Source of the DNA: Pseudomonadota bacterium
GTDB taxonomy: Bacteria; Pseudomonadota; Gammaproteobacteria; Steroidobacterales; Woeseiaceae
Reading direction: 5' to 3'
Assembly (NCBI GenBank): GCA_022567295.1
Contig: JADFHE010000008.1
Location: 8,113-72,112 of the forward strand
Length of the DNA: 64,000 nt
Shown: piece by piece, positions 179 to 46,558 of the stretch
Layout: every line of letters begins with the position of its first letter
How positions within the stretch are numbered: the first letter of the stretch is position 1
Program-made: the position numbers and the translations under genes
Notes under the pieces: model-generated
The model's database searches: none
What the model saw: only the letters and a program-made list of their open reading frames with translations
Told to the model about the DNA's origin: nothing

Positions 179-3100
179 ATGAAGCTTAGAGTTGCCATGC
201 TTGCCGTTTTACTTGCTACGAATACCGCCGTTGCAATGGAGGGCTATTACCGCTCGCCGAGCCTGCACGGTGACATTGTCGTGTTTACTGCCGAAGGCGA
301 TCTTTGGCTGTATCGCATTGGCAGCGATCAAGCTGAACGCCTGACCACGCACCCATCGCTTGAGACAAACGCTTCGCTGTCGGGCGACGGAGATCAGATC
401 GCATTTGTTTCCGACTACGAGGGCGTCGCCGAAGCATACGTCATGCCGACATCCGGCGGTGTGCCAAAGCGGCTGACTTATGAGAACGAGCGCGTTTTCA
501 TCCAGGGATGGACACCCGATGGTCTGGTGCTCTACAGCACAGGCAGTCGCGTTGGTGCTCCCTATAACATGACGCTCAAGACCGTCAATCCTGCCACCCT
601 GGAAGTTGCATTTATTCCGCTTGCAGATGCTTTCGACGGTGCGATCGATCCTGATACAGGAGATGTTTTTTTCACGCAGTTCGGTCTGCAGTGGAGTGGC
701 GATAATGCGATCACCTATCGTGGCGGAATGCGTGGCAAGTTGTGGAAATACGCGTCGGCCCCGAACAGCGAAGCGTCGAGATTGATGCCAGACCATTTGG
801 GTTCGGCAAGACGGCCAATGACACAGGGAGACAAACTGTATTTCTTGTCTGACGCCAGTGGGCGCGACAATCTATGGTCAGTCGATTCTGACGGTGCAAA
901 CGCCACTCAAATAACACATCACGAAGACTTCTCCATTCGCGGCGCGAGCCTCGACAGCGGCAGGTTGGTCTACCAACTCGGTGCTGATCTCCATCTGCTT
1001 GATTTATCGAGCCTTGACTCTCGCAAGCTGGAAATTCAGCTGACCTCGGATCATCCAGGCATGCGCGAATCATGGGTTAATGAGCCACTGAAGTTCCTGA
1101 CCGCCGCCAGGCTCGCGGGTAATCAGGAGAAGGTCGCGGTGACGGCGCGCGGCAGAATTGCGATCGCTGGAATCGATCAGGAGAGACTTGTCAGCATTGG
1201 ATCACCACCTCGCTCTCGAATGCGGAATGCCGTATTGAGTCGAGACGGAAAGTGGGTATATGCGATCAGCGACGCAAAAGGTGAACTGGAGCTATGGCGT
1301 TACGATGCAAGCGGCGCGACGACAGGTGAGCAAATGACAAAAGGTGGCAGCACATTGCGCGGCAACTTCTTCGAGTCACCCGATGGAAAGTGGATCGTCC
1401 ATGACGACGGAGATGGCGGGCTATGGCTGCTGAATACGAAGACTAAGGACGATACGAAGATCGTAAGCGACAGCAACATCGGACAGCAATTTGGTAACGT
1501 TGCCTGGTCGCTCGACAGTAAAGCGTTTGCAGTCTCTCATCGGGGCAAAGACGATGCTCGCCCACGCATTTTACTTCACGCTATTGACGGTGGCACACAA
1601 GCATTTATAACGTCCGACAAGTACGAATCATGGGCGCCGACGTTCGGCCGGGATGGTGAATGGCTGTATTACCTGTCGAACCGACATTTCGAATCGAAAA
1701 ACAGCTCAGTGTGGGCTGACCGGGATTTCGGTCCGTCGTTTGACAGTCGAACTGAAGTTTATGCACAGGCATTAACCGAAGATGCCGAATTCCCGTTCCT
1801 GGTTGCGAATGAATTAACGGTGAAGCAGACAGAAGACGAAGACAGCGACGGCAACGGAAGCAATGATTCCAAAGACGTCAGTACCAAAATTGAATGGCAA
1901 GGCCTAGCGGGCCGCGTATGGCAAGTTCCAGTTGCAGCAGGAGATTTTCGTGATATCGCGGTTAATGACGAATTTATGTACTTATTGTCGACAACCGGCG
2001 ATGGCTCGGAAATCAAGCTCCTGAAACTCGAGCCACAATCGGAGCTGACGACGTTTACGGACAGCGCCATCGACATTGCGCTATCCGATGATGGTAAGAA
2101 ACTCCTGGTCGTGAAAGAGTCGAACGATGAAATTTCGATGTTCATCGTTCCAGCCGAAGAAGAATATCCAGAAGACGTCAGCAAGAATACGGTACAGACT
2201 GAAGGATGGCAGTTCAGCATCAACCCCCAGGCGGAGTGGCAACAGATGTTCCATGACGCCTGGCTCATGCACCGTGAGCAATTTTTCGACCCGGCCATGA
2301 GAGGTCTGGATTGGAACGCTGTCAAAGACAAGTACACACCAATGTTAATGCGCGTTACCGATCGACGTGAGTTGAATGATGTGTTGGCGCAGATGATGGG
2401 TGAGCTTAATGCACTGCATTCGGGAGTTCGTGGCGGAGATGTCGCCTCGGATCCCGATGCTCCGAGTCCGTCAATTCTTGGCGCGGAGCTCAAGCAAACT
2501 CCACGTGGTGTTGAGATCAGGCACATCTATCGTCACGACACCGAGGTGCCGGCAGAAGCACCGCCGCTGGCCAAACCCGGAGTTGATGCCGCCGATGGTG
2601 ACATCATTGTGGCTATCAATGGTATAGAGGCGAAATCGCTTGATGTGGTCCACCGTTCCTTACGAAATCAAGCGGGCAAACAGGTTCTCCTGAAACTCAA
2701 AAGAGGGCGTGCGGAGATAAAGACGGTTATTGTTCCCGGCGATATGGGTCAGGACAGGCAATTCCGCTACAACGACTGGGTTCATAACAATCGACTCAAA
2801 GTCGAAGCTGCAGGCTCCGAACTCGGGTATCTGCATATTCAAGCAATGGGCGCGGCGGACGTCGCGACGTTTGCAAGAGACTTTTACGCTGGCGGCAGGA
2901 AGAATGGATTTATCATTGATGTCCGCCGCAACGACGGTGGTAATGTTGATAGCTGGATAATCGATCGACTATTGCGCAAGGCCTGGATGTTTTGGTCATT
3001 TCGATCCGATGACGTTTACGCGAATATGCAAAATGCATTTCGAGGTCACTTGGTGGTCATTGCTGACGAAGGAACCTATTCCGATGGCGAAACATTTACC

Positions 3101-3442
3101 GCCGCAATAAAGTCACTGGGCATCGCACCGGTAATTGGCAAGCGGACCGCCGGTGCTGGCGTCTGGTTGAGTGGGAGAAACTCCTTATCCGATTTCGGCA
3201 TTGCAAGAGTCGCAGAATTTCCGGTCTATGCCATGGATGGACGATGGATTGTCGAGGGCCACGGTGTCTCACCCGACATCGAGGTCGACAATCCGCCGCA
3301 TGCGACTTACGAGGGAAATGACGCACAGCTGGAAGCGGCAATTAAATACTTGCAGCAAAAAATTGACGATGAGCCGATTCCAGAACTGCGAGCACGACCC
3401 TTTCCTGAATACGGTCAGCCTGCTGACGACGTATCGAATTGA
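179..3442 (+). CDS. Tricorn-type protease homologue (beta-propeller/PDZ/S41-like core), exported
   Basis: 1087-aa ORF. Signal peptide MKLRVAMLAVLLATNTAVA. Opening YYRSPSLHGDIVVFTAEGDLWLY and the size and architecture are typical of bacterial tricorn protease homologues. Confidence 0.8.
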   Translation: MKLRVAMLAVLLATNTAVAMEGYYRSPSLHGDIVVFTAEGDLWLYRIGSDQAERLTTHPSLETNASLSGDGDQIAFVSDYEGVAEAYVMPTSGGVPKRLTYENERVFIQGWTPDGLVLYSTGSRVGAPYNMTLKTVNPATLEVAFIPLADAFDGAIDPDTGDVFFTQFGLQWSGDNAITYRGGMRGKLWKYASAPNSEASRLMPDHLGSARRPMTQGDKLYFLSDASGRDNLWSVDSDGANATQITHHEDFSIRGASLDSGRLVYQLGADLHLLDLSSLDSRKLEIQLTSDHPGMRESWVNEPLKFLTAARLAGNQEKVAVTARGRIAIAGIDQERLVSIGSPPRSRMRNAVLSRDGKWVYAISDAKGELELWRYDASGATTGEQMTKGGSTLRGNFFESPDGKWIVHDDGDGGLWLLNTKTKDDTKIVSDSNIGQQFGNVAWSLDSKAFAVSHRGKDDARPRILLHAIDGGTQAFITSDKYESWAPTFGRDGEWLYYLSNRHFESKNSSVWADRDFGPSFDSRTEVYAQALTEDAEFPFLVANELTVKQTEDEDSDGNGSNDSKDVSTKIEWQGLAGRVWQVPVAAGDFRDIAVNDEFMYLLSTTGDGSEIKLLKLEPQSELTTFTDSAIDIALSDDGKKLLVVKESNDEISMFIVPAEEEYPEDVSKNTVQTEGWQFSINPQAEWQQMFHDAWLMHREQFFDPAMRGLDWNAVKDKYTPMLMRVTDRRELNDVLAQMMGELNALHSGVRGGDVASDPDAPSPSILGAELKQTPRGVEIRHIYRHDTEVPAEAPPLAKPGVDAADGDIIVAINGIEAKSLDVVHRSLRNQAGKQVLLKLKRGRAEIKTVIVPGDMGQDRQFRYNDWVHNNRLKVEAAGSELGYLHIQAMGAADVATFARDFYAGGRKNGFIIDVRRNDGGNVDSWIIDRLLRKAWMFWSFRSDDVYANMQNAFRGHLVVIADEGTYSDGETFTAAIKSLGIAPVIGKRTAGAGVWLSGRNSLSDFGIARVAEFPVYAMDGRWIVEGHGVSPDIEVDNPPHATYEGNDAQLEAAIKYLQQKIDDEPIPELRARPFPEYGQPADDVSN

Positions 3443-4413
3443 GCGTTTGCCGCGAATCGATCCGTGGCACAAACCAATTCATGCACGATGCCCGGTTCGC
3501 TGCCAGCGTGGCCGGCATCGCCGACCAGCCGGAAGTCGGCCTCGGGCCAGGCCTTGTGAATATCCCAGGCGGTGCGCATCGGGGTGCACATGTCGTAGCG
3601 ACCCTGAATTAACACCGCGGGAATATGTTTGATCTTGTGCAGGTTCTGAATGATCTGGTCGTCGGCATCAAAGAACCCGCCATTGACGAAGTAGTGGCAT
3701 TCGATTCGTGCGAAGGCCAGGGCGAACTCATCGGAATCGACGTCGCCGTGCCGCCTTGGATCGGGCCACAATGAGATCGCTGAGAATTCCCAAAGCGCCC
3801 ACGCCCGGGCACATTCGACCTGTGCGATTTTGTCGTCACCGGTTAAACGCTTGTAATAGGCTGCCATCATGTCGCTGCGTTCATCCGCAGGAATGGGAGC
3901 GACATAGCCCTCCCAGAAATCGGGATACACATGGTTGGCACCCTCTTGATAAAACCACTCCAGCTCAGACCGGCGTAGCGTAAACAGCCCGCGCATGACC
4001 AGTTCCGTCACCCGGTCCGGATGGTTTTGCGCGTAGGCCAAACCCAGCGTACTGCCCCAGGAACCACCAAAGACTTGCCATTTATCGATACTGCAATGCT
4101 CGCGCAGCGCCTCGATATCAGAGACCGAATGCCAGGTGGTGTTGTCGACCAGCGAGCCACCGGGTTTGGACCGACCGCAACCGCGTTGGTCGAATAAGAC
4201 GATGCGGTATGCATCCGGATCAAAATAACGTCTGAAATTGGCACTGCATCCAGCCCCCGGACCGCCGTGCAGATAAACGACCGGTTTGCCGTCCGGAATG
4301 CCGCACTCCTCAAAGTAAATTTCGTGGCTTTCCGATACTCGCAACATCCCGGAGTTATAGGGTTCGATTTCAGGATACAGCGTGCGCTCGTAAGGTGGTT
4401 TGGACAGGATCAT
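3415..4413 (-). CDS. pip: Proline iminopeptidase (prolyl aminopeptidase, alpha/beta hydrolase)
   Basis: Motifs PYNSGMLRVSESHEIYFEECG, VYLHGGPGAG and GGSWGSTLGLAY (GxSxG) are characteristic of Pip. I chose the start at the internal Met (MILSKPP); the ORF track extends to 4461. No signal peptide. Confidence 0.85.
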   Translation of the reverse strand: MILSKPPYERTLYPEIEPYNSGMLRVSESHEIYFEECGIPDGKPVVYLHGGPGAGCSANFRRYFDPDAYRIVLFDQRGCGRSKPGGSLVDNTTWHSVSDIEALREHCSIDKWQVFGGSWGSTLGLAYAQNHPDRVTELVMRGLFTLRRSELEWFYQEGANHVYPDFWEGYVAPIPADERSDMMAAYYKRLTGDDKIAQVECARAWALWEFSAISLWPDPRRHGDVDSDEFALAFARIECHYFVNGGFFDADDQIIQNLHKIKHIPAVLIQGRYDMCTPMRTAWDIHKAWPEADFRLVGDAGHAGSEPGIVHELVCATDRFAANAQFDTSSAG

Positions 4414-4620
4414 TAATTCAATCAAGCCTTGGTATTCAAAGAGTGGGAAATGACATTGCACGGAACGACCGTCGGATAGTGTCTGCGGTAATGGCCGTTC
4501 AGACCTGCATTATGATTTTGCCGATTACTGCACGCTACCTTTCCCGGTGTCAATTTGCTACGGAATTCAACTGATAGACTAGGCTCGCAATGGAAATCAG
4601 TGTGAGGGCGGTGCTGATAG

Positions 4621-5523
4621 TCATGGTTTCTCACTTTCTATCGTCTCAAGTAGCCAGTCCCGAAGTGCAACCACGGGCGCGTAGTCACGTTTGGCGTCCG
4701 GTGTAACCAGGTAGTACGCCATCTCAGATGTCATTGCCTGACCAGACAGGATTACGAGTTCGCCCCTGTCGAGCTCGCCGCGTATCAGGAAGCGCGGTAG
4801 CAACGCCACACCCAGGCCCGCCACGGCCGCATGAGCCGCGATGGAAAACTGTTCGAATACCATGGTGCCGATGTTTCCCGGTACATCGAATCCCTGCTTA
4901 CCGAACCAGTCTTTCCATGCGTCCGGGCGTGACTCGAGATGCAAGAGCGGCAAATCACGTGGGTCGTTATTGAGCATGTTTTTCGCTCGCGGCAAAAGCT
5001 CGGGTGAACAGACCGGAATCGCCTTCTCTCCCATCAGGAACGTGCACTCGGCGCCCGGCCAGTTCGGGAGGCCATAGTGGATGGCCGTATCAATCCCTTC
5101 CGGGCCAAATTCGAATCGCGACAATCGCGTGACAAAATTCACGGTTATATCGGGATGCTGCTGCAAGAAGCCCGGAAATCTCGGCATTAGCCAACGCGTG
5201 CCAAAAGTTGGCAGGATGGCGAAATTCATTGTGCAGCTCAGCGGGCTGGTGATGACCCTGAGCGATGCCCTGCGCAAGGCCGACAGCGTGGCCTGAATAT
5301 CCACGGCGTAGGCCGCGCCGACCTCGGTCAGACTGACGCCGCGCGCTGAACGAACGAACAGAGAAGCGCCGAGCTGAAACTCGAGGGCTGCGACCTGCCG
5401 GCTGATGGCGCCATGCGTTAGATTCAGCTCGCGAGCCGCGGCCGATACGCTGCCTTTTCTCGCAGTCGCATCGAAGGCGGCCAGCATACTGATGCTGGGC
5501 AAGAGTCTTTTTTCGATTTGCAT
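4621..5523 (-). CDS. LysR-family transcriptional regulator (GcvA-like)
   Basis: N-terminal wHTH LPSISMLAAFDATARKGSVSAAARELNLTHGAISRQVAALE followed by a LysR substrate-binding domain. Transcribed divergently from the KamA-like operon. Start could instead be 5535. Confidence 0.85.
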   Translation of the reverse strand: MQIEKRLLPSISMLAAFDATARKGSVSAAARELNLTHGAISRQVAALEFQLGASLFVRSARGVSLTEVGAAYAVDIQATLSALRRASLRVITSPLSCTMNFAILPTFGTRWLMPRFPGFLQQHPDITVNFVTRLSRFEFGPEGIDTAIHYGLPNWPGAECTFLMGEKAIPVCSPELLPRAKNMLNNDPRDLPLLHLESRPDAWKDWFGKQGFDVPGNIGTMVFEQFSIAAHAAVAGLGVALLPRFLIRGELDRGELVILSGQAMTSEMAYYLVTPDAKRDYAPVVALRDWLLETIESEKP

Positions 5524-5575
5524 ATCCGTTACCAAACCTCACAGGTCCGTGACATATCGTCGATTGTGCCACACC

Positions 5576-5601
5576 TCAGCGCGCTGCAACATACGCGCTG
5601 A
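5576..5601. promoter_or_regulatory. Perfect 8-bp inverted repeat TCAGCGCG-N10-CGCGCTGA, candidate LysR operator
   Basis: Read directly in the 5524-5713 divergent intergenic region between the LysR gene and the radical-SAM gene. Dyad symmetry in this position is typical of LysR-type binding sites. Confidence 0.35.
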
Positions 5602-5680
5602 AATGAATGACTTTTCGAGACCTGCGAGCTATCCGCTCTGGTAGACGAATCGAAGTTCTTTTTTGACTTAATGTGATCTC

Positions 5681-7159
5681 TTGGCACGAAAAACCACATC
5701 ATCGGCGGCAGATATGACAACGAAAGAAAAGTATCAACCAACACCCAAGGCACAGGCATTCCTTGATTCGGTCGAAAACGGCAAATACAAACGTCAGATC
5801 ATTACCGGAATCAAGAAATTCCTCGACGGCAAGGTGGAAGGCGGCATCGAATCCCTGTACTCGGAGTCAGAATTACAGGCACTGAAGGCATTGAAGGGCA
5901 CGCCACAGGATGTCGAAGCCCGCATGCCGGTGAAAATCACGCGGCACTACTACGAGCTGGCAAAGAACAGCCTGCCTTTGCAGACCCTGGTCAAGGCCAG
6001 CCCAAAAGAGACCGGCAATCTTGAAGGATCTGCCGATCCTGGCAAGCAGATGGATTACAGCCCGGTAGAGGGCCTGATTCACAAGTATGAGCTTGGGCTG
6101 ATCTACGTCGCGCTGACCTGCTCCGCGCACTGCCGCTTTTGTTATCGCGAGGAGTTGATCGCGAAAAAGGACGTCGAGCGCCCAGATGGCACGATCGCAC
6201 CGAAAGGGCTGGCCCAGATCGGAGAACTTACCGACTATATCCGGCAGCACAACGAGCAGGTCGCACAGAACGGCGGGCGTCACCCCGATACCGGACGCGA
6301 GAAACTGCGTGAAATCCTGATGTCGGGCGGCGACCCGATGGTACTGGGCAACAAGAACATCGCAGCCTGGTGGTCGGCATTGGCCGATGCCGGCATCGAA
6401 TCAATACGCATCGGTACCAAGGAACTCGCGTTTTATCCTGATCGATTCGACGCAACCTTTTTCGACATGCTCGACAAGTTTCATGCCGCCTACCCCAAGA
6501 TCAGTATTCGGTTCATGGTGCACTTCAACCACCCGGATGAGTTTTTGAAAAGAGACGAAGAGGGTCGCTATATCGAAGATCCTCGCGGCGGCCTTGAATG
6601 GATAGAGTCCACAAGCAAGGCCATGCGCCAGCTTGGGAGCCGGGAATGGGTGACGATGGATAACCAGGCGCCAATTATCAAGGGCATCAATGACGATTCG
6701 GATGCGCTGCGTATCATGCAGCGGGAATTGCGCCGCAACCGCGTCGAGAATCATTATTTCTTCTGCGGCAGAGACATCATCGGCTACAAAGCATTCAACG
6801 TGCCCATCGAACGTGTCTGGCACATACTGAACGAATCGCAGAAAGGGCTTTCGGGAATTGAGGCGCACGCTCGCTTGTCGATTACGCATTACAAAGGCAA
6901 GACAGAAGTCGCGGCGGTCTCAAACCAGCCGCTTGCGGGCATACCGGGCACTGAGAACGGCTTCGTCGTATTGAAGCTGCTGCGCGGTGCCGAAGACGCA
7001 CCGGATCGCGGCAAGATAACGATCGTCGGACGAAACCCCGATGCGATTTGGTTCGACGGCTACAACGATCGAGTCATTTACGATGAGGCGGGACTATTTG
7101 CTGACGTCGGTGAGGAAGCCCCCGGCGCAGAGATTCAGACCGCAACCGGCGGCACCTGA
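5681..7159 (+). CDS. KamA-family radical SAM aminomutase-like protein (divergent from lysine 2,3-aminomutase)
   Basis: [10 protein letters not shown] (CxxxCxxC plus Arg), [18 protein letters not shown] and a YKGKTEV lysine motif all align with lysine 2,3-aminomutase landmarks. TTG at 5681 or ATG at 5714 (MTTKEKY) are possible starts. Confidence 0.8.
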
Positions 7160-7160
7160 A

Positions 7161-7484
7161 ATGACGTACGTCGTCGGTGAAAATTGCATTCGCTGCAAGC
7201 TCACGGACTGCGTTGAGGTGTGCCCGGTAGACTGCTTTTACGAAGGCCCGAATTTTCTGGTTATCGATCCCGACGAGTGCATCGATTGCGATTTGTGCGT
7301 GCCGGAGTGCCCTGTCGACGCAATCTACGCCGAGGATGACCTTCCCACTGATCAGGCGGAATTTCTCGAACTCAATGCGGAACTCGCAGAAATCTGGCCA
7401 AACATCAGCGAGCAGAAGGATCCGTTGCCGGACTTTGAAAAATGGGACGGCGTTGCGGGCAAACGCGAATTCCTGGAGCGCTAG
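7161..7484 (+). CDS. fdxA: 7Fe (3Fe-4S + 4Fe-4S) ferredoxin, FdxA type
   Basis: [55 protein letters not shown] matches the Azotobacter-type ferredoxin I pattern. The ATG lies 1 nt after the radical-SAM gene stop. The ORF track's longer N-terminus overlaps the preceding gene. Confidence 0.85.
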
Positions 7485-7487
7485 GGT

Positions 7488-8198
7488 GTGATTAACAAGC
7501 AACACGATACTCCGGCCGATGCGGTCGCCGACATTTTCGACGGCGCGACGGTGCTGATCGGCGGGTTCGGCGCGGCGGGCAGTCCGATTGAATTGATCCA
7601 CGCGCTCATCGACCAGGGAGCGTCGGATCTCATCGTTGTTAACAACAATACGGGCAGCGGTCATGTTGGACTCGCGGCGCTGATCGAACAGGGCCGCGTC
7701 GCGAAGATGATCTGTTCTTTTCCGCGGACCGCCGGGTCAACGGTATTTCCGGACAAATACCAGGCAGGCGAGATCGAACTGGAGCTCGTGCCGCAAGGCA
7801 CATTGGCGGAACGCATCCGCGCCGGTGGTGCTGGAATCCCTGCGTTCTATACGCCGACGTCTGTCGGTACCGAGCTTGCCCAAGGTAAGGAAACCCGGAC
7901 TTTCGACGGCCGAGAATACGTGATGGAGTATGGTCTTACGGCGGACTTTGCTCTGATCAAGTGTTTACGAGCAGATCGACTGGGAAATCTTATCTACAAT
8001 AAAACGGCCCGCAATTTTTCACCCGTGATGGCGATGGCAGCAAAAACAACGATTGTTCAGGCCGATTCAATTGTTGCGGCCGGCGACATTGACCCGGAGG
8101 TTGTTGTCACGCCGGCCGTCTTTGTGAATCGGATGGTAGAAGTCGGCGAGCCATTGCAGGAGTCTGCGATGGTCGCGTCCAGCGTGAGCTACCCGTGA
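7488..8198 (+). CDS. CoA-transferase subunit A (3-oxoacid/acetoacetate CoA-transferase family I)
   Basis: 236 aa; IGGFGAAGSPIELIHAL, ELVPQGTLAERIRAGGAGIPAFYTPT and IKCLRADRLGNL are typical of ScoA/AtoD. GTG start 3 nt after the fdxA stop. Confidence 0.85.
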   Translation: MINKQHDTPADAVADIFDGATVLIGGFGAAGSPIELIHALIDQGASDLIVVNNNTGSGHVGLAALIEQGRVAKMICSFPRTAGSTVFPDKYQAGEIELELVPQGTLAERIRAGGAGIPAFYTPTSVGTELAQGKETRTFDGREYVMEYGLTADFALIKCLRADRLGNLIYNKTARNFSPVMAMAAKTTIVQADSIVAAGDIDPEVVVTPAVFVNRMVEVGEPLQESAMVASSVSYP

Positions 8199-8860
8199 GC
8201 AATACCAGCCAGGAGGTCCTCGGTTGGGAGCGTGCAGACATTGCACTCAATATCGCTCTCGACATACCGGACGGTTCGATCGTCAATCTGGGCATCGGGA
8301 TTCCGGAGATGGTGGCGGCGTGCATTCCGGCCGATCGCGAGGTGATTTTCCATACTGAAAATGGCCTGTTGGGCATGGGACCACCGCCCGATCCCGATAG
8401 CGAAGACCCGGAGTTAATCAATGCCGGCAAGCGTCACATAACGGCAATTCAAGGAGCGGCCTACTTCCACCATGCCGACAGCTTCGTAATGATCCGCGGC
8501 GGCCACATCGATCTCTGTGTCCTGGGTGCGATGGAGGTATCGGAGAACGGGGACCTCGCAAATTGGTCGATGGGCAGCGATGACGCAGCACCCGCTGTTG
8601 GTGGCGCGATGGACCTGGTCGCGGGCGTCGAAAATATCGTCGTCGCAACAATGCACTGCACAAGAAAGGGACGTCCCAAATTGGTCCGCTCCTGTTCGTA
8701 CCCGCTTACAGGCATCGGAGTCGTGCGCCGCATTTACACAGACCTGGCGATCATGGACGTATCGGCGCAATCACTCGAAGTCATACGCCTTGCACCGGGC
8801 ATTGACTTCGACTACGTGCAACAACGAACCGAAGCTGAGCTGACAATAAAGACCGCATAA
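8195..8860 (+). CDS. CoA-transferase subunit B
   Basis: 221 aa; LGIGIP, ENGLLGMGP and GAMEVSENGDLANW (catalytic Glu motif SENG) are typical of ScoB/AtoA. GTGA overlap with subunit A. Confidence 0.85.
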   Translation: MSNTSQEVLGWERADIALNIALDIPDGSIVNLGIGIPEMVAACIPADREVIFHTENGLLGMGPPPDPDSEDPELINAGKRHITAIQGAAYFHHADSFVMIRGGHIDLCVLGAMEVSENGDLANWSMGSDDAAPAVGGAMDLVAGVENIVVATMHCTRKGRPKLVRSCSYPLTGIGVVRRIYTDLAIMDVSAQSLEVIRLAPGIDFDYVQQRTEAELTIKTA

Positions 8861-8862
8861 CG

Positions 8863-10230
8863 ATGACCGAGACAGATAAACAGGCGTCAAGCCGAAGCGC
8901 CCGCCTTTACCAGCGCGCGCTAGCTGTCATGCCCGGAGGTTGCAGCCGCAACACCGTGTTGCGCAGGCCACATCCGTTATACGCTGCTCACGGCGAGGGT
9001 TGTTATCTAACGGATATCGAGGGTGTTACCCGCATCGACTTCGCCAATAACATGGCGTCGTTGATACACGGCCATGCACCGCCCGAGATAGTCGATGCCG
9101 TTACAGAACAACTGCATCGTGGCACCGGGTACACAATGGCGACCGAAGCTGAAATCTTGTTCGCCGAGCACATGTGCAACCGCGCGCCGGCATTCAAAAA
9201 GATCCGCTTCGTGAATTCAGGCACGGAGGCGATCATGAGCGCGGTGAAAGCATCACGTGCTTTCACCGGCCGCGCCAAGATTGCAAAGGTGGAAGGCGCT
9301 TACCACGGCCAGTACGACTATGCCGAAGTCAGCCAGAACCCCGGGCCAACCAATTGGGGTGCCCTTGATTCACCATCCAGTGTACCGGTCGCCTACGGCA
9401 CTCCGGCGTCAGCACTCGACGATGTCGTCATCATTCCGTTTAACGACCCGGACCGGGCGATTGCGATTCTCGAACAACACGCGAAGCATCTTGCGTGTGT
9501 TCTCGTCGACCTGATGCCGCATCGCGTGGGATTAATTTCGGCCGAGCCGGAATTCGTGACAAGACTTCGCCAGTGGACGCGCAGTAATGATGTGCTGCTC
9601 GTATGCGATGAAGTCATCACATTTCGATGTGATTATGGCGGCGCACAGGCGTCATACGACATCGAGCCTGATTTGACGGCGATGGGAAAAATGATTGGTG
9701 GAGGATTCCCGGTTGGCGCACTGGCCGGCAGTGACGCAGTGATGAGCGTGATGGATCCACTGGCGGATAAAATACTGTTTCCGCACTCGGGTACATTCTC
9801 TGCGAACCCAGTCACGATGACAGCGGGACGAATCGCAATGGAACTGTTTGACCAGGCGGCGATCGACCGACTGAATGATCTGGGTGAGAAAGCGCGAGGT
9901 GCGATCGAGGAAGCAATTCGAGCGGCCGATGTTCCAGCGTGCGTAACAGGAACCGCGTCGATGTTTCGCATTCACATGAAGCCGAACCCACCGCGCAACT
10001 ATCGTGAAGCGTACGACGTGGCCAACGAAGATATTTTGCGCAGAGAGTTCCTGGACTACGCGTTGGCTAACGGCATTCTTCTTGTCGGTACCTGCACAGG
10101 CATGTTATCCACGGCGATGACCGGCAAAGAAATTGACCGTCTTGCTGAGGTCGTCGAGGGTGCGTTCAGAAAGATCGGACCCGCGTTGAGCGTCAAGAGC
10201 CATGTTGATAAAACGCGGTCATCGCTCTGA
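8863..10230 (+). CDS. Class-III PLP aminotransferase of the glutamate-1-semialdehyde aminomutase-like subgroup
   Basis: 455 aa; VNSGTEAIMSAVKASRAFTGR, CDEVITFR and LTAMGKMIGGGFPVGA (PLP lysine) match the GSAM-like subgroup. Confidence 0.8.
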   Translation: MTETDKQASSRSARLYQRALAVMPGGCSRNTVLRRPHPLYAAHGEGCYLTDIEGVTRIDFANNMASLIHGHAPPEIVDAVTEQLHRGTGYTMATEAEILFAEHMCNRAPAFKKIRFVNSGTEAIMSAVKASRAFTGRAKIAKVEGAYHGQYDYAEVSQNPGPTNWGALDSPSSVPVAYGTPASALDDVVIIPFNDPDRAIAILEQHAKHLACVLVDLMPHRVGLISAEPEFVTRLRQWTRSNDVLLVCDEVITFRCDYGGAQASYDIEPDLTAMGKMIGGGFPVGALAGSDAVMSVMDPLADKILFPHSGTFSANPVTMTAGRIAMELFDQAAIDRLNDLGEKARGAIEEAIRAADVPACVTGTASMFRIHMKPNPPRNYREAYDVANEDILRREFLDYALANGILLVGTCTGMLSTAMTGKEIDRLAEVVEGAFRKIGPALSVKSHVDKTRSSL

Positions 10231-11629
10231 AGAGCATGTGAACGTCAACTTTCGAACTCACCGAATAGGTAGAATGTATCGACAACACCGGCACACCGTA
10301 GTCGATCACTTCCATATTGTGCTTTGACAGTGAACTGCCGATCGTGCCACCCGACGCCCGGCCTTTATAAGTCGCGGTCTGCCACGCAATACCGGCATCG
10401 TCAAAGTACGCTCGAGTCCAGGCTATGTATTCTGAATTCGCGTTGAAACCGCCACCGTACAACTTGAAGTTGACGCCATGTCCGAGTCGCGGCGCATTGC
10501 CGGCCTCCCAGACCTCAGGCCAGGTTGGATGGATGCCTGGGTTGACGTCGGCCGACACAACTTTTGTTTTGCGCAGCGCTTGCCGCAATTCATAATCGCT
10601 ATAGGCGTCACCGAGCTGACGATGAATGAGCTCACTCATCAGATCAACGAGGTAGGTCGAGCTGGCACCGGTATTGTTCACATTGCCAACCTCTTCGTTG
10701 TCCACGAGGAAAGCGAGTGACGTGTACTCAGGTGTCCCCTGCTCCATAATTGCGCGCATTGCGGCGTACGATGACAGCTTGTCGTCCTGTCCGTAGATAG
10801 CCATTAAACTTCTGTCCAGGCCGACGTCCCTCGGCGCCATCGCCGGCACGAGCGCGAGCTCTGCTGATACGAAATCCTGCTCTTCAATTCCGTATTCGTC
10901 AGCAAGATAGGCGAGCACGGCATTCGATATCGAATGCTCCGCATCCGGTAGGGTCGCAATGATCGGATCCAGCTCTTCTCCACCAATGACATCTCGATTC
11001 ATGCGCTCGCGAAAATCATGATCGACGTGCGGGGACAAATCAGGAATGATCAGGATCGGATCCTCAGGATCGAGGCCAACCGATATCTCGACACGTGTGC
11101 CATCTTTTTTATCAACGTGACCGACCAGTGCCAACGGCAAATTGACCCATTGGTAGTTCTTGATACCGCCGTGCTGGTAGGTCTGAAAAAGCGCGAATCC
11201 CTCGGCCTCATAGAGCGGCCGCCCCTTCAGTTCGAGTCGCGGCGAATCAATGTGCGCACCAACAACCCGAAATCCGTCTGTAAAGCGTTTTTTGCCGGCG
11301 ACGATCAAGGTAATTGTGCGGCCCCGATTGACGTCGTAGTACCGGCCTCCTGGACGAATAACACGGTCAGACGTCAATTCACGAAATCCGGCTGCCTCAA
11401 CAATTTTTACGGCTTCAGAAACAAAGCTCATCTCAGTCTTTGCCCGGCTCATGAAGTCTTTGTAACTCTCGGCGAATACCAGTACCGCTTTGCGCTCTTT
11501 TAACGACAGGCTGACCCACGCCGGTGGCGGCCCTGTATCTTCGTCTCCCTGAGCACTGACGATGCCAGGAGAAGTCCCCGCCAGCGTCGCGAAAAGTATA
11601 ATTAACATTAAGCGATTACTAATAATCAT
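10193..11629 (-). CDS. M18-family aminopeptidase, exported
   Basis: 478 aa; signal peptide MIISNRLMLIILFATLAGTSPGIVSAQ; GAHIDSPRLELKGRPLY and the C-terminal IHSTYS motif are typical of M18 aminopeptidases. Confidence 0.75.
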   Translation of the reverse strand: MIISNRLMLIILFATLAGTSPGIVSAQGDEDTGPPPAWVSLSLKERKAVLVFAESYKDFMSRAKTEMSFVSEAVKIVEAAGFRELTSDRVIRPGGRYYDVNRGRTITLIVAGKKRFTDGFRVVGAHIDSPRLELKGRPLYEAEGFALFQTYQHGGIKNYQWVNLPLALVGHVDKKDGTRVEISVGLDPEDPILIIPDLSPHVDHDFRERMNRDVIGGEELDPIIATLPDAEHSISNAVLAYLADEYGIEEQDFVSAELALVPAMAPRDVGLDRSLMAIYGQDDKLSSYAAMRAIMEQGTPEYTSLAFLVDNEEVGNVNNTGASSTYLVDLMSELIHRQLGDAYSDYELRQALRKTKVVSADVNPGIHPTWPEVWEAGNAPRLGHGVNFKLYGGGFNANSEYIAWTRAYFDDAGIAWQTATYKGRASGGTIGSSLSKHNMEVIDYGVPVLSIHSTYSVSSKVDVHMLFRAMTAFYQHGS

Positions 11630-11659: not shown

Positions 11660-12595
11660 CTAATATCCAGCGTCAAAATCGACAACGTATTTGAGCGCTC
11701 GCTGGCTGGTGTAACGGCGATAGTTATCGATGAATATTGGTACGATGAGCGATGGATGACTCACTGCTGCAACATGAGCCGTAATCGATAAATTGGGGGT
11801 ATCCCAAAGAGGGCTGTTCTGCGCTAAGGGTTCCTCGTCAAATACATCCAGTGCGGCGCCTGCCAACCTATCGTTTTTCAACGCATCGATCAGTGCTCCC
11901 TCATCAACGACATTGCTGCGGCCGACATTGATCAAATAGGAATGTGCAGGAAGTTTCGCCAGTGATGCGGCGTCAAGCAGGTTGTCTGTATCGGCGGTTT
12001 GAGGAAGGGCTGCAATAAGATAATCGATCCCTTCCAGGAAATCGTGTAGTCGACCAATCGGCGTTACTTTTTCAAAACCTGGCGCAGGCGCGCCCGAACG
12101 ACTCAAGCCGGTCACTGTTGCACCGAAGTGATGCGCCGTTTTCGCAATGTGCTGGCCGATAGAACCCGTTCCCATAATGCCGAGACGTTTCCCTCGCAGC
12201 ATGCCTGAGTCTGCATTGAACCAGTTGTGCTCACGCTGTTCATTCATGCGCTGCACCACTTTCAATTCGTGAGCTAACATATAGCCAATAACGTATTCCG
12301 ACATCTGTGGTCCGAACACATCCTTGATGCCCGTCAATACGTAATCACGGCGATCAAGCGCCAACAGGGGTGTGACTCCTGCCCAGGAGGACTGGACCCA
12401 ATCGACCGCAGACATTTCAGGCAGTATCTCCGCAATCATATCGGGGTTGCCGAAGACTACCGACTCGTCCGTGTAATCGACGAGTGCCTGTGCCGCGGAG
12501 GTGCAGGCTTTGATTGCTATCGGGATATCAGCAAGGCGAGCGACCTCCTCGGCAAGCTCTTCCGCATTGGCAGTGACTATCAGGCAATCCGGCAT
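11660..12595 (-). CDS. D-isomer-specific 2-hydroxyacid dehydrogenase family, NAD-binding
   Basis: GIMGTGSIGQHIA Rossmann motif; INVGRSNVVDEGALIDAL and LDVFDEEPL motifs. Start taken at MPDCLIV; the ORF track extends to 12643. Confidence 0.8.
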   Translation of the reverse strand: MPDCLIVTANAEELAEEVARLADIPIAIKACTSAAQALVDYTDESVVFGNPDMIAEILPEMSAVDWVQSSWAGVTPLLALDRRDYVLTGIKDVFGPQMSEYVIGYMLAHELKVVQRMNEQREHNWFNADSGMLRGKRLGIMGTGSIGQHIAKTAHHFGATVTGLSRSGAPAPGFEKVTPIGRLHDFLEGIDYLIAALPQTADTDNLLDAASLAKLPAHSYLINVGRSNVVDEGALIDALKNDRLAGAALDVFDEEPLAQNSPLWDTPNLSITAHVAAVSHPSLIVPIFIDNYRRYTSQRALKYVVDFDAGY

Positions 12596-12611
12596 AGCGA
12601 AATCACTGGCA

Positions 12612-14663
12612 TCACTCCGACCCGGTCCCCAGGTAGCGGGCATACCACTCGATCATGCGCTCCAGTCGATCCTGAATGTAGCTCGGCTTGGAGAGGCCAT
12701 GGTTCTCACCCGGATAGATCACCAGCTGCGTCGGTACGTTCAGACTGCGCAGTGCCTGATACATCTGCTCCGAGTTGATCAGCGGCACGTTAAAGTCCAG
12801 CTCTCCACACATGAACAGGGTTGGGGTCTCGATGCGATCGGCGTGCAGGAACGGATACGACAGCTTGAGATAGGACTCGGGTGATTCCCACGGCAGACCG
12901 AGCTCATTCTCATACACCCGGATATACTGATCAGTGCCGTAGCCCGCGATGTAGTTCGAGGCCGACGCACCGGAGACCGCCGCCGCGAAGCGAGTGTCGG
13001 TCGCAATGGCGAAATTGGTATTGATACCGCCGTAGCTCCAGCCGCCGATGCCCAGCCGCTCGGGATCGGCCAGGCCCTCCTCGACCAGCTTATCCATCAC
13101 TGCGTGGATGTCCTGAATTTCCAGGCCTCCCCAATCCGCATAGATCGCCCGGGAAAACTCGCGGCCACGACCTGAGCTACCCCGGTAGTTAGGGTTAACC
13201 ACGAGGTAACCCTGTGCCGCCAGCATCTGGGAAATGGTATCGAATTCGTAGCCGTCCTGCCCCACGGGTCCGCCGTGCACATAAGCAATCGTTGGGTACC
13301 TGACGCCGTCACGATAACCCGGCGGCTTGAGCAGCATCGAGCCGACCATGACGCCGTCTTTGCTTACGGCGTCGAAGCTTTCGACCGTCGCCCAGTCGAT
13401 TGACTCGCGCAGCTCCCTGTTGTGATCGCTGAGCGCCTTGCCGTCGTTCGCCCGATAGATCTCTGCGGGCCGCTGACCGAATGTCGTAACTGCGACCACA
13501 CCGTTATGACCGATGGCGAATGACCTTACGACGCCTGGCACAGTGTCAGCCGGATAGGCTCGCTCGACGTTGCCGCCTTCGGACGGCACACTCGCCAGCG
13601 TCTGAGTACGATCGTCGGCGACCAGGAAATGCAGCGTCTTACCATCGGGCGACCACCGCGGTGACGATATATTGCGGTCCAACTCACTGGTTGGCAAAAA
13701 AGGCTCGCCGCCTTTAACCGATATCACAGCGATCTGGCTTGGATCGTAACCCGAATACTTGGGTGGCCCGTCTTGCAGATAGGCAATCTGCCTGCCATCC
13801 GGACTGAACACAGGGTTGCTGTCCGGTCCCTCCCAGGTAGTCACCTGGCGGGCCAACGCGTTCGCAGACGTTTCGATGACATAGATATCGCTGTTCTCGT
13901 GCCGGTCCGGATCACCCTGACGTTTGCTGCTGAAAGCGATGATGTCGCCGTCCGGCCCCCAGGCAGGCTGGGTACTGTCGTACGAACCTGGGGTCAGAAG
14001 TGACGCTTCCCGTGATTCCAAGTCAAAGACATACAGTCGCTGATAGCGATCGCCCAGGTAGCCCAGACCATCCTGTTTGAATTGGTAGCGATCGATGACA
14101 ATCGGCTTCGGCGTGTCGTGTGAAACGGTTTCGGTCTCTGCAGCGTCTTCTTCCTGCTCCTCGGGGTCCCTGGAAACCAGCACGAGACGCGTGCTGTCCG
14201 GAGACCACTCGAAGCTCGACACGCCGCCCGGCATCTCTGTCAGGCGCTCCGCGTCACCGCCAGAACGGTTCAGGCGCCAGACCTGGCTTTTCCCCTTGGG
14301 GTCATCGGACTCGTCTGACTTTCCGTCACCGCGTGCGGCAACAAATGCGAGGTATTTTCCATCGGGACTGAACCGTGGATGTCCTTCGCCACTGTCCTCG
14401 GTGTGCGTCAGCTGGATGCGTGTCGATCCGTTCCAGTTGACCATGAATAAATCCGAGGTACTCTCATCCTTGTCGACGTTCGTCGTACCCACCCGGTATG
14501 CGATCCACTCACCATCGGGAGAAATCGCAATGTCACCGACGTGCTTGATCCGATGCACGTCTTCGGGCTGAAACAGCCGACGCTCGACGTCCTGTGCCAG
14601 GACACTGCCGGAAATCAATCCGGCGAACAAGAAGCCGGATAGGGTGTTTGCCGAGCAATTCAT
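12612..14663 (-). CDS. S9-family serine peptidase (prolyl oligopeptidase/dipeptidyl peptidase type) with N-terminal beta-propeller, exported
   Basis: 683 aa; signal peptide; repeated SPDG propeller motifs; nucleophile motif GGWSYGG; C-terminal HG. Confidence 0.85.
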   Translation of the reverse strand: MNCSANTLSGFLFAGLISGSVLAQDVERRLFQPEDVHRIKHVGDIAISPDGEWIAYRVGTTNVDKDESTSDLFMVNWNGSTRIQLTHTEDSGEGHPRFSPDGKYLAFVAARGDGKSDESDDPKGKSQVWRLNRSGGDAERLTEMPGGVSSFEWSPDSTRLVLVSRDPEEQEEDAAETETVSHDTPKPIVIDRYQFKQDGLGYLGDRYQRLYVFDLESREASLLTPGSYDSTQPAWGPDGDIIAFSSKRQGDPDRHENSDIYVIETSANALARQVTTWEGPDSNPVFSPDGRQIAYLQDGPPKYSGYDPSQIAVISVKGGEPFLPTSELDRNISSPRWSPDGKTLHFLVADDRTQTLASVPSEGGNVERAYPADTVPGVVRSFAIGHNGVVAVTTFGQRPAEIYRANDGKALSDHNRELRESIDWATVESFDAVSKDGVMVGSMLLKPPGYRDGVRYPTIAYVHGGPVGQDGYEFDTISQMLAAQGYLVVNPNYRGSSGRGREFSRAIYADWGGLEIQDIHAVMDKLVEEGLADPERLGIGGWSYGGINTNFAIATDTRFAAAVSGASASNYIAGYGTDQYIRVYENELGLPWESPESYLKLSYPFLHADRIETPTLFMCGELDFNVPLINSEQMYQALRSLNVPTQLVIYPGENHGLSKPSYIQDRLERMIEWYARYLGTGSE

Positions 14664-18803: not shown

Positions 18804-18960
18804 CCAACTGTTGATATTGCTGTATCTTAATACTGACAATTATGTGCCATTCGGTTCCAACTGTCTATGAATATAAAGATATATACATGCCAATATGTGG
18901 TATGTACGCCACAATCCGAAATTGCTTCCCGTCCGGGCACATTCATGGATAATGTAATCT

Positions 18961-20979: not shown

Positions 20980-20981
20980 GC

Positions 20982-22595: not shown

Positions 22596-22866
22596 AGCGC
22601 CAGTTAGAAGCCCGGCACATGGCCGGACTTTCGGTTTCCTGGCAGCAATCTTCAGGTGCGATCTCTGTGAAGTGCAAACTGACGATCTTCCATCAAGGCA
22701 CGCCGTGAATACAGTCCACCCCGACGCGCGAAGCGAGGACAGGCCGAATGCCCATCTCCCCAGCCTGACCAATTCAAAATAAGCAAAATCGTCGTTGTTA
22801 GTGGATCGCGGTCTGGAGAGACTCCTGATAAGCCACGTCATGCCAATCGGCAGGTCAAACCTATTT

Positions 22867-23784
22867 TCACACTTCGCGGAGGCTGAATCCGTGTTCGCGT
22901 TCCAACAAAGCAGCCAGTTCATGCCCAGCCGTTGCCGACATCGCAGTCAGTGGTGGGCGGACATTGGCCCACCGCTCGTCACCGGTGGCGATTGCGAGCA
23001 GACGCTTCTGCGCCGGGATCGGGGAATACTCCTGCAACGTTAGCCGCAATCGCTTGACGGTCTCGTGCTGCGCTTCCGCTGCAGCGTGGTCACCGTCAAC
23101 ATGTAATTCTACGACCTTGACGATGTTGCCCGCATTGACGTTGGCGGTTGCCGTGATGCAACCCGGGGAGCCAAGCGCCAACGCCTCAAGTAGCGGCAAT
23201 TCCGATCCTGGATAAACAACTAAGCCGTCAATATCAAGCAGCGCCCGCGTATTATTCCAATCGCCGGAACTGTCCTTGATGCCGACGATCTGATCCGGGA
23301 ACGCCGCGTGCAGTCGCGAGGCCAGCGTTGGCGGCACACCAACAATGGCGACCGGTGGAATGTGGTACAGATAGATGCACGCGTCCTGTCCGATCGCTGC
23401 AATCAATTGCTCAAAGTAGTTAAAGAGCCCGTCTTCGGAAACGTCCTTGTAATAAAACGGCGGCAAAGTCAGCACGCCAGCACAGCCCATGTCGAGACAA
23501 GCGCGCGATAATCGGGCAGTGTCCGCCACATTTGACAATCCGGTACCCGGAATCAATCGCTTCGGGTCGATGCCACTGTCAATTAAATCCTCAATCGCGG
23601 CGATCCGTTCGTCTATGCCAACTGACAAGGCTTCGCCTGTCGTGCCGAACGGCGCGATGCCAGCGCAGCCCTGCTCAATCAGCCATTTCGCATGAGCGAC
23701 ATAAAGATGGGTTGCCACCAGGAAGTTATCGTCGAACGGCGTCAAAATCGGCGCAATAATGCCGCGAATTTTCTCGACCGTCAT
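22867..23784 (-). CDS. Dihydrodipicolinate synthase/N-acetylneuraminate lyase-family class I aldolase
   Basis: 305 aa; GIIAPILTPF, GTTGEA and the Schiff-base lysine context GIKDSSGD. AGGAA RBS upstream. Confidence 0.8.
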   Translation of the reverse strand: MTVEKIRGIIAPILTPFDDNFLVATHLYVAHAKWLIEQGCAGIAPFGTTGEALSVGIDERIAAIEDLIDSGIDPKRLIPGTGLSNVADTARLSRACLDMGCAGVLTLPPFYYKDVSEDGLFNYFEQLIAAIGQDACIYLYHIPPVAIVGVPPTLASRLHAAFPDQIVGIKDSSGDWNNTRALLDIDGLVVYPGSELPLLEALALGSPGCITATANVNAGNIVKVVELHVDGDHAAAEAQHETVKRLRLTLQEYSPIPAQKRLLAIATGDERWANVRPPLTAMSATAGHELAALLEREHGFSLREV

Positions 23785-23977
23785 CCAGTCAATTTCCTAA
23801 CACGACACGCAATTATTGTTGTTGTTGGCACCTTCGATCACATGAACAAGGCAACGAGGGTCTAATAATATCGCAGTCCGGGTCGATTTGGCAGACGTCG
23901 GCCGTATCGTTATTTACGATCATCGAGTAATCAATCGACATATGTTCGGGGTTCGTGCTGCGAATAATCCGAATTGC

Positions 23978-26220: not shown

Positions 26221-26262
26221 TGATGGATATTCTTACGAAAATCTAAAACACGGTAATGCAGC

Positions 26263-27162: not shown

Positions 27163-27395
27163 ACCAGCGAATATTCCAATTTTACAGTGTGAAATACCAT
27201 AAGACAAAGCTACAGGCCTATAGGCTAGGCAAAAATCGCACGCTCGCAACGTTGTCATTTTCCGGAAGATCGTCCATCAATCAGTAGCAACATCCATTGA
27301 GCTACTAACAATCACATGCCACTATCTGCCATGAGTGTAAGGTCGTTCTCTGCGGCGACATAGAATCAACGTCATCTTGATCGGGGGATCTGCAC

Positions 27396-46540: not shown

Positions 46541-46558
46541 TTGGGAGTAGATTTCCCT

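Follow-up and report, generated by a model that had tools for sequence, protein, structure and literature searches.

An operon built around a KamA-like radical-SAM protein in a Woeseiaceae bacterium: a candidate module for L-2-aminoadipate catabolism

Which amino acid would call for a relative of lysine 2,3-aminomutase (LAM), a ferredoxin, a coenzyme A (CoA) transferase and an aminotransferase, all encoded in a single operon? The question is raised by a stretch of 64,000 nucleotides (nt), hereafter the window, from a bacterium of the Woeseiaceae (Pseudomonadota; GenBank assembly GCA_022567295.1, contig JADFHE010000008.1, positions 8,113 to 72,112 of the forward strand). A first-pass annotation, made from the sequence without database searches, had read five genes of the window as a candidate pathway in which an α-amino acid is converted to a β-amino acid, transaminated to a β-keto acid and passed on for thiolytic cleavage. 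Our comparative analysis suggests that this general β-amino-acid catabolic logic very probably applies, and that the operon is probably a self-contained module for the catabolism of L-2-aminoadipate.

The operon and its recurrence in other genomes

The operon comprises five genes on the + strand (open reading frames (ORFs) were taken from the ORF listing, and families were assigned with Pfam and NCBIfam hidden Markov model (HMM) scans). The first (5714..7159; ATG start) encodes a KamA-like radical S-adenosylmethionine (SAM) protein with the motif CSAHCRFC, our proposed L-2-aminoadipate 2,3-aminomutase. It is followed by an FdxA-type 7Fe ferredoxin (7161..7484), by subunits A (7488..8198; GTG start) and B (8195..8860; GTG start; PcaJ-like) of a family-I 3-oxoacid CoA-transferase, the former proposed to belong to a PcaI-like 3-oxoadipate:succinyl-CoA transferase, and by a class-III, GSAM-like aminotransferase with an Aminotran_3 domain (8863..10230; ATG start), the proposed 3-aminoadipate aminotransferase. 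The tight packing on one strand claimed in the first-pass annotation is confirmed by the ORF listing, with spacings, in order, of +1, +3, −4 (an overlap) and +2 nt. The radical-SAM ORF has two candidate starts, 5681 and 5714; the ATG at 5714 was chosen because the orthologues (476–481 residues) share that methionine. A consensus scan within the operon revealed no terminator- or promoter-like excess. The aminotransferase gene and a convergent gene for an M18 aminopeptidase share 38 nt at their 3′ ends (10193-10230), which leaves no space for an intergenic terminator.

A protein collection clustered at 90% identity contains more than 2,000 relatives of the radical-SAM protein. The top 120 of these clustered relatives are 72–99% identical and come from Woeseiaceae, Emcibacter and many marine Gamma- and Alphaproteobacteria. 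An HMMER search over 1.84 billion representatives returned just 78 proteins at E<1e-30. A genome scan, with one genome per species, yielded 225 loci, of which 80 were kept (L004–L083). They are found in Gamma- and Alphaproteobacteria, Chloroflexota, Myxococcota, Planctomycetota and Bacteroidota, and the family is overwhelmingly marine. Carriers include the Gamma 3 symbiont of the gutless worm Olavius and five cultured bacteria (Woeseia oceani, Hoeflea sp. TYP-13, Sneathiella chungangensis, Cucumibacter marinus and Parasedimentitalea huanghaiensis); most are presumably aerobic marine heterotrophs.

Neighbours of the radical-SAM gene were counted in 81 loci by tblastn with the window proteins and by de novo clustering of all ORFs; 50 of the loci have at least 5 kb on both sides. 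An aminotransferase orthologue lies beside the radical-SAM gene in 59 of the 81 loci (41 of the 50), a LysR gene, mostly divergent, in 50 (33), CoA-transferase A in 38 (25), CoA-transferase B in 36 (23) and the ferredoxin in 20 (14). This arrangement occurs far more often than chance would allow. Conservation of the set as a unit had been named as a check on the pathway idea, and the set does recur in this way across six phyla, in 80 genomes besides that of the window. Where the CoA-transferase is missing from a locus, no replacement was found and the neighbours are unrelated (isocitrate dehydrogenase, an ABC-2 transporter, β-galactosidase, cytochromes, a sulfatase).

Sequence conservation is uneven across the loci. 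The radical-SAM protein remains 68–87% identical, with ∼180 invariant positions among 44 aligned family members, and the aminotransferase and CoA-transferase B fall to 54–65%. The high identity of the radical-SAM protein across six phyla could reflect unusually strong constraint or recent horizontal spread. At some loci, such as L002 of an Emcibacter sp. (8910-11422), L088 and L090, the radical-SAM gene occurs either with LysR only or by itself, without a linked aminotransferase or CoA-transferase. In such genomes the partners may sit elsewhere, or the enzyme alone may interconvert α- and β-aminoadipate.

Encoded enzymes and gene neighbourhoods

In sequence searches of the PDB, the sole match of the radical-SAM protein is LAM (2A5H, 53 bits). 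An AlphaFold model (predicted local distance difference test (pLDDT) 71.6, predicted template modelling score (pTM) 0.75) was compared with the PDB by Foldseek. Again 2A5H was the sole strong match (E 7e-14, template modelling score 0.53–0.64, ∼430 aligned columns, ∼20% identity), the runner-up being NifB (3.5e-4). The LAM-type fold spans the whole chain of the model. We aligned the verified full 2A5H sequence with family members and intermediates, and judged invariance over the 44 family members. The cluster motif CxxxCxxC (C136-S-A-H-C140-R-F-C143) is invariant and aligns with C125, C129 and C132 of LAM. G395-K396-T397-E398 is also invariant and aligns with G336-K337-T338 of LAM, which includes the lysine that binds pyridoxal 5′-phosphate (PLP), with the flanking SG and T-x-V as anchors. 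One MAFFT run placed this segment otherwise, and the predicted strand-turn-strand favours the first alignment. An arginine past the cluster motif (R134 of LAM, which binds the α-carboxylate of the substrate), SGGD, HFNHP and an NQ pair are kept as well. The fold, the cluster cysteines and the PLP lysine support the earlier assignment as a KamA-like enzyme that would convert an α- to a β-amino acid. Compared with LAM, the family has a ∼25-residue insertion after HFNHPDEF and the sequence THYKG where LAM has its PGGGG phosphate loop. None of the cysteines of the structural zinc site (C268, C375, C377 and C380 of LAM) has a counterpart in the alignment, and the family lacks the C-terminal CxCxxC segment.

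The family also departs from the lysine enzymes at the two residues that would face the ε end of lysine. Asp293 and Asp330 of LAM are said, in work by Lepore et al. from 2005, to hold the ε-ammonium group of lysine. The position of Asp293 is taken by the invariant Arg353, on which phmmer, hmmsearch and MAFFT agree, and that of Asp330 by the uncharged Ser389/Ile390; E. coli EpmB has Asp and Glu at these positions. As both acidic residues are gone, one of them in favour of an arginine, the active site predicted from these alignments speaks against lysine and favours a substrate whose distal group is anionic. The family appears in sequence resources as "hypothetical", "KamA family radical SAM protein" or "lysine 2,3-aminomutase", and the residues suggest that the last of these names is wrongly applied.

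Curated models do not name the protein. It scores 86 bits on the KamA family model TIGR00238 (cut-off 199.2), 80 on EpmB (369), 79 on lys_2_3_AblA (525), 85 on glutamate 2,3-aminomutase TIGR04368 (650) and 88 on the arginine aminomutase model Arg-AM (600), so that its best NCBIfam matches, at 77–88 bits, all fall far short of their cut-offs. Pfam Radical_SAM is matched at E 0.004 only, and there is no Pfam match at E<0.001. The sub-threshold TIGR00238 score makes the protein a divergent KamA relative and not a member by the curated cut-off. EpmB and LAM proper were both rejected as identities, since the equivalog cut-offs are missed and the acidic ε-site residues are gone; naming by way of distant kin also failed, with none of 10 more distant KamA-like representatives reaching any equivalog cut-off. 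The possibility that the protein clusters with EpmB or another non-catabolic clade had been flagged at the outset; the EpmB score speaks against it. On this sequence evidence, the radical-SAM proteins are a distinct clade of KamA/LAM-fold proteins and are not EpmB.

Genes linked to the cluster in other genomes point to the probable substrate. One cluster of neighbours (c5, ∼510 residues) consists of aldehyde dehydrogenases. Its representative reaches 789 bits, against a cut-off of 730, on the NCBIfam equivalog for L-piperidine-6-carboxylate dehydrogenase, and members at least 51% identical to it occur in 22 loci. The product of L-piperideine-6-carboxylate (P6C) dehydrogenase is L-2-aminoadipate. 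A second cluster (c8, ∼360 residues, 13 loci) carries two saccharopine-dehydrogenase Pfam domains; it mostly adjoins c5 together with an Lrp/AsnC regulator. Its top PDB match is 3ABI, the L-lysine 6-dehydrogenase of Pyrococcus horikoshii (PMC10413350). In Ruegeria pomeroyi, a verified pair of lysine dehydrogenase (lysdh, SPO0234) and semialdehyde dehydrogenase (aasadh, SPO0235) genes yields 2-aminoadipate, which reportedly builds up as an osmolyte under high salt (PMC4334477). A third cluster (c7, ∼400 residues) has a representative scoring 680 bits on the equivalog for PcaF, 3-oxoadipyl-CoA thiolase (cut-off 597). Members at least 63% identical to it occur in 14 loci, mostly right after the aminotransferase gene.

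Within 8 kb, c5 is present in 18, c8 in 9 and c7 in 9 of the 50 complete loci. Loci L014 and L027, both from Woeseiaceae, have the order Lrp / lysine dehydrogenase, P6C dehydrogenase, radical-SAM protein, ferredoxin, CoA-transferase A, CoA-transferase B, aminotransferase. In several Alphaproteobacteria it is LysR / radical-SAM protein, CoA-transferase A, CoA-transferase B, aminotransferase, PcaF; in the Planctomycetota loci PcaF is present and the gene order is different. Each of these three genes probably occurs about once per genome, which we assume here. Their recurrence nearby in several phyla and gene orders is therefore strong evidence of functional coupling with the radical-SAM cluster. 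As the linked modules supply 2-aminoadipate and consume 3-oxoadipyl-CoA, the gap between them consists of an amino shift, removal of a β-amino group and a CoA transfer. These steps would be expected of an aminomutase of the KamA type, a β-transaminase and a transferase of the PcaIJ type, and for this reason we propose a 2-aminoadipate route. Residues and linkage together suggest that 2-aminoadipate derived from lysine is the likely substrate of the operon.

The aminotransferase was previously described as a GSAM-like β-amino-acid transaminase, with the caveat that it might prove to be a genuine HemL. It scores 329 bits on the hemL model TIGR00713 (cut-off 527) and 325 on PRK00062 (398). Its best PDB matches are StoTA (6K8H, 405 bits), ForI (326), GSAMs (∼213) and β-phenylalanine transaminases (∼190). 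We rejected HemL, as the hemL cut-offs are missed and StoTA and ForI outscore every GSAM. Over 428 aligned residues the protein is ∼50% identical to StoTA (an estimate from the printed alignment) and keeps the equivalents of its catalytic lysine K282 and carboxylate-binding arginine R36, in support of a predicted β-amino-acid transaminase. StoTA, from Sphaerobacter, is a demonstrated β/γ-amino-acid transaminase that accepts β-leucine, with low activity on all β- or γ-amino acids tested (PMC10589169). Its natural substrate may likewise be a β-amino acid such as 3-aminoadipate. StoTA was rejected as a true orthologue, since its close kin in a Sphaerobacter metagenome-assembled genome (MAG) and in another genome are unlinked to a radical-SAM gene; by context it is therefore a homologue only.

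CoA-transferase A scores 341 bits on TIGR02429 (pcaI_scoA_fam; cut-off 128.5), its top PDB matches being SCOT A subunits, and CoA-transferase B scores 281 bits on TIGR02428 (pcaJ_scoB_fam; cut-off 243.6). Subunit B contains T54-E55-N56-G57 within HTENGLLGMGP; (S/T)ENG is the catalytic-glutamate motif of this subunit, here with E55. We read the pair as PcaIJ because of its linkage to PcaF in other genomes: the PcaF equivalog is found in 14 orthologous clusters and nowhere in the 64-kb window. The view that a CoA-transferase feeds a thiolytic cleavage is in line with this PcaIJ/ScoAB type and with the thiolase gene downstream in those 14 genomes.

The ferredoxin scores 167 bits on NF045490 (FdxA_Protbact; cut-off 135) and contains DUF3470. 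Its nine cysteines (C9, C12, C17, C21, C25, C40, C43, C46 and C50) follow the Azotobacter FdI pattern of one 3Fe-4S and one 4Fe-4S cluster. Where present, it always directly follows the radical-SAM gene, a location that fits a reductant of the radical-SAM cluster. The idea of a dedicated ferredoxin thus holds as regards its place immediately 3′ of the radical-SAM gene, but not as a general rule, given that only about a quarter of the loci have it.

A sister clade of proteins 44–50% identical to the radical-SAM protein occurs in Verrucomicrobiota, Margulisiibacteriota and others, mostly as stand-alone genes. One locus in a Margulisiibacteriota MAG (L089, JBFWNS010000001.1, 7001-10628) combines a 44%-identical KamA-like gene with a different class-III aminotransferase and a BKACE (PF05853) gene, after which come genes for an AMP-binding ligase and a carnitine acyltransferase-family protein. 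The locus shares the logic of α-amino acid to β-amino acid to β-keto acid to cleavage, with another last step, and so supports the aminomutase/β-transaminase reading for the wider clade. It may represent a second undescribed β-amino-acid pathway.

The divergent regulator gene (4621..5535, − strand; a second possible ATG start lies at 5523) encodes a GcvA-like LysR-family protein with Pfam HTH_1 and LysR_substrate domains, which scores 250 bits on the GcvA subfamily model, under the cut-off of 288. Its orthologues (39–79% identity) are the divergently placed LysR genes counted above. It would probably induce the operon on 2- or 3-aminoadipate. In the intergenic region between LysR and the operon lies an exact inverted repeat with 8+8 arms, TCAGCGCG-N10-CGCGCTGA (5576..5601), a possible operator; the chance expectation for such a repeat in this region is ∼0.1 by a rough estimate. 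The palindrome noted in the first-pass annotation therefore exists, but it is not conserved. We rejected it as a conserved LysR operator, as the orthologous intergenic regions contain either no inverted repeat or repeats that are unrelated to it.

The operon is flanked by genes for a Tricorn-like S41/PDZ protease (179-3442) and a prolyl aminopeptidase (3415-4461) on one side, and for the M18 aminopeptidase (10193-11629) and a D-2-hydroxyacid dehydrogenase (11660-12643) on the other, followed by a 683-residue ORF (12612-14663) that by eye resembles an S9-type peptidase. In tblastn searches of the other loci, the prolyl aminopeptidase, the M18 aminopeptidase and the 2-hydroxyacid dehydrogenase were never found beside the cluster; the peptidase genes around the operon do not belong to the system. 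Farther away, in the region 16290-32852, TonB-dependent receptor genes (16290-18839 and 27396-29915) are interspersed with three genes for TPR + Sulfotransfer_3 proteins (18961-20979, 20781-22595 and 30831-32852). On the + strand at 44876-49269 lie adjacent genes for a GMC oxidoreductase (44876-46540), a TauD-family dioxygenase (46541-47776) and a 3-hydroxyacyl-CoA dehydrogenase/4HBT thioesterase fusion (47773-49269), a trio that we take to resemble γ-butyrobetaine/carnitine catabolic genes.

The proposed route and its alternatives

In the route that we propose, the radical-SAM/PLP enzyme would shift the amino group of 2-aminoadipate from C2 to C3 to give 3-aminoadipate, its [4Fe-4S] cluster being reduced by the co-encoded low-potential 7Fe ferredoxin. 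The aminotransferase would then pass the β-amino group to a 2-oxo acid, leaving 3-oxoadipate (β-ketoadipate). The PcaIJ-like CoA-transferase would form 3-oxoadipyl-CoA at the expense of succinyl-CoA, and a PcaF thiolase would split it into succinyl-CoA and acetyl-CoA. This thiolase, encoded inside the cluster in other genomes, would have to be encoded elsewhere in the source genome. Overall, lysine would be converted to succinate and acetyl-CoA with zero CO2 lost, and the 2-oxoadipate and glutaryl-CoA dehydrogenases would not be needed. On balance we lean towards regarding the radical-SAM protein as the first natural 2-aminoadipate 2,3-aminomutase, on a carbon-conserving branch of lysine breakdown to succinyl-CoA and acetyl-CoA.

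Several observations weigh against this route. The evidence on the function of the radical-SAM family is comparative throughout. The structural model is only moderately confident, at the pLDDT given above, and poor near the cluster loop. The protein is under the KamA-family cut-off, and the family does without the PGGGG phosphate loop and the zinc-binding cysteines of LAM. An arginine at the position of Asp293 is also present in many other uncharacterised KamA-like proteins and is only moderately diagnostic. Some genomes have LysR and the radical-SAM gene only. In the aminotransferase, an extra basic residue for the second carboxylate was not found: the Arg34-Arg35 pair is not conserved, and among 13 residues that are conserved in the orthologues and differ in both StoTA and ForI there is no obvious extra basic one. 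The NCBIfam models cannot tell PcaIJ from ScoAB. Finally, tblastn of the 64-kb window found no lysine dehydrogenase, P6C dehydrogenase, PcaF or Lrp, and the substrate assignment therefore depends on other genomes.

The first alternative keeps the logic and changes the amino acid. Glutamate might pass through β-glutamate to 3-oxoglutarate, or leucine through β-leucine to 3-oxo-4-methylpentanoate, with a CoA-transferase and a thiolase to finish; the leucine version is reportedly Poston's β-keto pathway. Glutamate 2,3-aminomutase, whose model is among the top NCBIfam matches, is said, in work by Ruzicka & Frey from 2007, to have a lysine at the position of Asp293, and Arg353 provides a basic residue at that same place; for the leucine version, StoTA accepts β-leucine. 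We nevertheless regard another amino acid as unlikely. The NCBIfam scores are all far below their cut-offs, glutamate catabolism requires no such detour, and neither substrate would explain why genes for P6C dehydrogenase, lysine dehydrogenase and PcaF are repeatedly linked to the cluster in several phyla.

A second alternative concerns the reaction itself. Given the missing PGGGG loop and zinc cysteines and the sub-cut-off KamA score, the radical-SAM protein could carry out a radical reaction other than a 2,3-amino shift, and the linkage would then reflect a different pathway. The lack of a Pfam match at E<0.001, the ∼25-residue insertion and the stand-alone occurrence of the gene in some genomes agree with such a view. 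However, the LAM fold is matched over ∼430 alignment columns, and the PLP lysine, the SAM-cluster cysteines, the arginine for the α-carboxylate, SGGD and HFNHP are all kept; to our knowledge, the characterised KamA-family enzymes are amino-acid 2,3-aminomutases without exception. A different reaction therefore seems distinctly unlikely.

Two further alternatives retain lysine as the substrate of the radical-SAM protein. In one of them, a true lysine 2,3-aminomutase would produce β-lysine, and the lysine dehydrogenase-like enzyme and the aldehyde dehydrogenase would oxidise its ε end to 3-aminoadipate, the remaining steps being unchanged. This uses the same gene set and leads to the same end products; all characterised lysine-acting KamA relatives take the free amino acid, and family members are labelled lysine 2,3-aminomutase by JGI. 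The two acidic residues for the ε-ammonium group, kept in LAM and EpmB, are however gone, one of them replaced by an invariant arginine. Moreover, the linked aldehyde dehydrogenase clears the P6C dehydrogenase equivalog cut-off, it forms with the lysine dehydrogenase a separate Lrp-linked module of variable orientation, and many genomes, that of the window included, have the LysR and radical-SAM genes without either dehydrogenase nearby. We consider this order of steps very unlikely.

In the other, β-lysine would be transaminated to 3-oxo-6-aminohexanoate, and its CoA ester cleaved to 4-aminobutyryl-CoA and acetyl-CoA. The chemistry is feasible with an aminomutase, a β-transaminase, a CoA-transferase and a thiolase. 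Barker and co-workers are said to have described a transaminase pathway for β-lysine by way of an N6-acetyl-β-lysine transaminase. The route would be an aerobic analogue of the β-lysine pathway of Pseudomonas B4, a distant precedent. The objection from the active site applies here in equal measure, the PcaF equivalog and the P6C dehydrogenase would be left without a role, and no N-acetyltransferase is conserved in the clusters, which renders such a cleavage highly improbable. Hardly credible is a biosynthetic operation in reverse, from succinyl-CoA and acetyl-CoA through 3-oxoadipate and 3-aminoadipate to 2-aminoadipate as an osmolyte or precursor: despite the aminoadipate osmolyte of R. pomeroyi, the marine bias of the family and the reversibility of the aminomutase, transaminase and CoA-transferase steps, the thiolase equilibrium generally favours cleavage, 3-oxoadipate is unstable, LysR-run operons of PcaIJF-type genes are typically catabolic and the linkage to lysine-oxidising genes would become redundant.

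If the proposed 2-aminoadipate route is correct, lysine and 2-aminoadipate can be degraded without CO2 loss to a C4 intermediate of the tricarboxylic acid cycle. Amino-acid breakdown would join the β-ketoadipate pathway, bypassing the 2-oxoadipate and glutaryl-CoA dehydrogenases, and the substrate range of KamA-type enzymes would extend to a C6 dicarboxylic amino acid. An oxygen-sensitive class of enzymes would also be placed in hosts that are presumably mostly aerobic. The route would be widespread among marine bacteria, from Woeseiaceae, Rhodobacterales and Kordiimonadales to Planctomycetota and Chloroflexota, and would provide a function for the more than 2,000 clusters of relatives that are now labelled generically or wrongly. 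In marine sediments, Woeseiaceae rank among the most abundant bacteria; the operon is thus relevant to how protein-derived lysine and osmolyte aminoadipate are turned over in marine carbon and nitrogen cycling. In biotechnology, there is active interest in enzymes that lead from 2-aminoadipate derived from lysine to a 3-substituted adipate, as a way to bio-based adipic acid.

Comparison with known systems

The first-pass annotation knew of no characterised pathway with this gene set, and we found no description of one in the full-text literature searched or in curated models. Neither Pfam nor NCBIfam (June 2026) holds a model that names the radical-SAM protein. A search for literature linking aminoadipate, an aminomutase and 3-oxoadipate found none, and 3-aminoadipate was met in metabolite lists and a meteorite study only, within a coverage that leaves out most subscription-only papers. 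Enzymes that deaminate β-lysine, lysine or 2-aminoadipate have been stated as not known (PMC7241714).

The radical-SAM protein shares with the KamA family (LAM 2A5H, EpmB and glutamate 2,3-aminomutase) the fold, CxxxCxxC, SGGD, HFNHP and the PLP lysine, and its proposed reaction is the same 1,2-amino shift. It differs in that its gene stands in a catabolic operon, and also in its proposed substrate, a C6 dicarboxylic amino acid. Similarly, the aminotransferase has the class-III fold of the β-amino-acid transaminases StoTA (6K8H), MesAT (2YKU), VpAT (4AO9) and ForI (6SSD). Such enzymes yield β-keto acids (PMC10589169); unlike in the StoTA-type transaminases, the proposed natural substrate here is a dicarboxylic β-amino acid.

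The lysdh-aasadh pair of R. pomeroyi is the same two-gene module that, often with Lrp, lies beside the radical-SAM cluster in 13–22 genomes. The known route of R. pomeroyi ends at 2-aminoadipate or goes on via 2-oxoadipate, whereas the operon would represent a different branch from this point.

Clostridial lysine fermentation (kamA-kamDE-kdd-kce-kal-atoAD) likewise combines a KamA-type start, a β-keto acid and a two-subunit family-I CoA-transferase. The earlier statement that kamDE, kdd, kce and kal are absent is sustained: none of them belongs to the conserved neighbours found at the 81 loci or was seen among the 27 window ORFs scanned, smaller ORFs lying outside that scan. The clostridial route removes the β-amino group with a dehydrogenase or a lyase and ends in butyrate and acetate; in the operon a transaminase is proposed for this step, and CoA-transferase and PcaF would deliver succinyl-CoA and acetyl-CoA.

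A further parallel is the lower β-ketoadipate pathway (PcaIJ and PcaF), whose intermediates and products are identical to those proposed for the operon. No linked pcaBCDGH genes were found in the neighbour survey of the 81 loci. The β-ketoadipate pathway is fed by aromatic ring cleavage, whereas the operon would draw on an amino acid converted by an aminomutase and a transaminase. The component families are known; what appears to be new is the substrate, the way the parts are assembled and the connection of lysine catabolism to the β-ketoadipate pathway.

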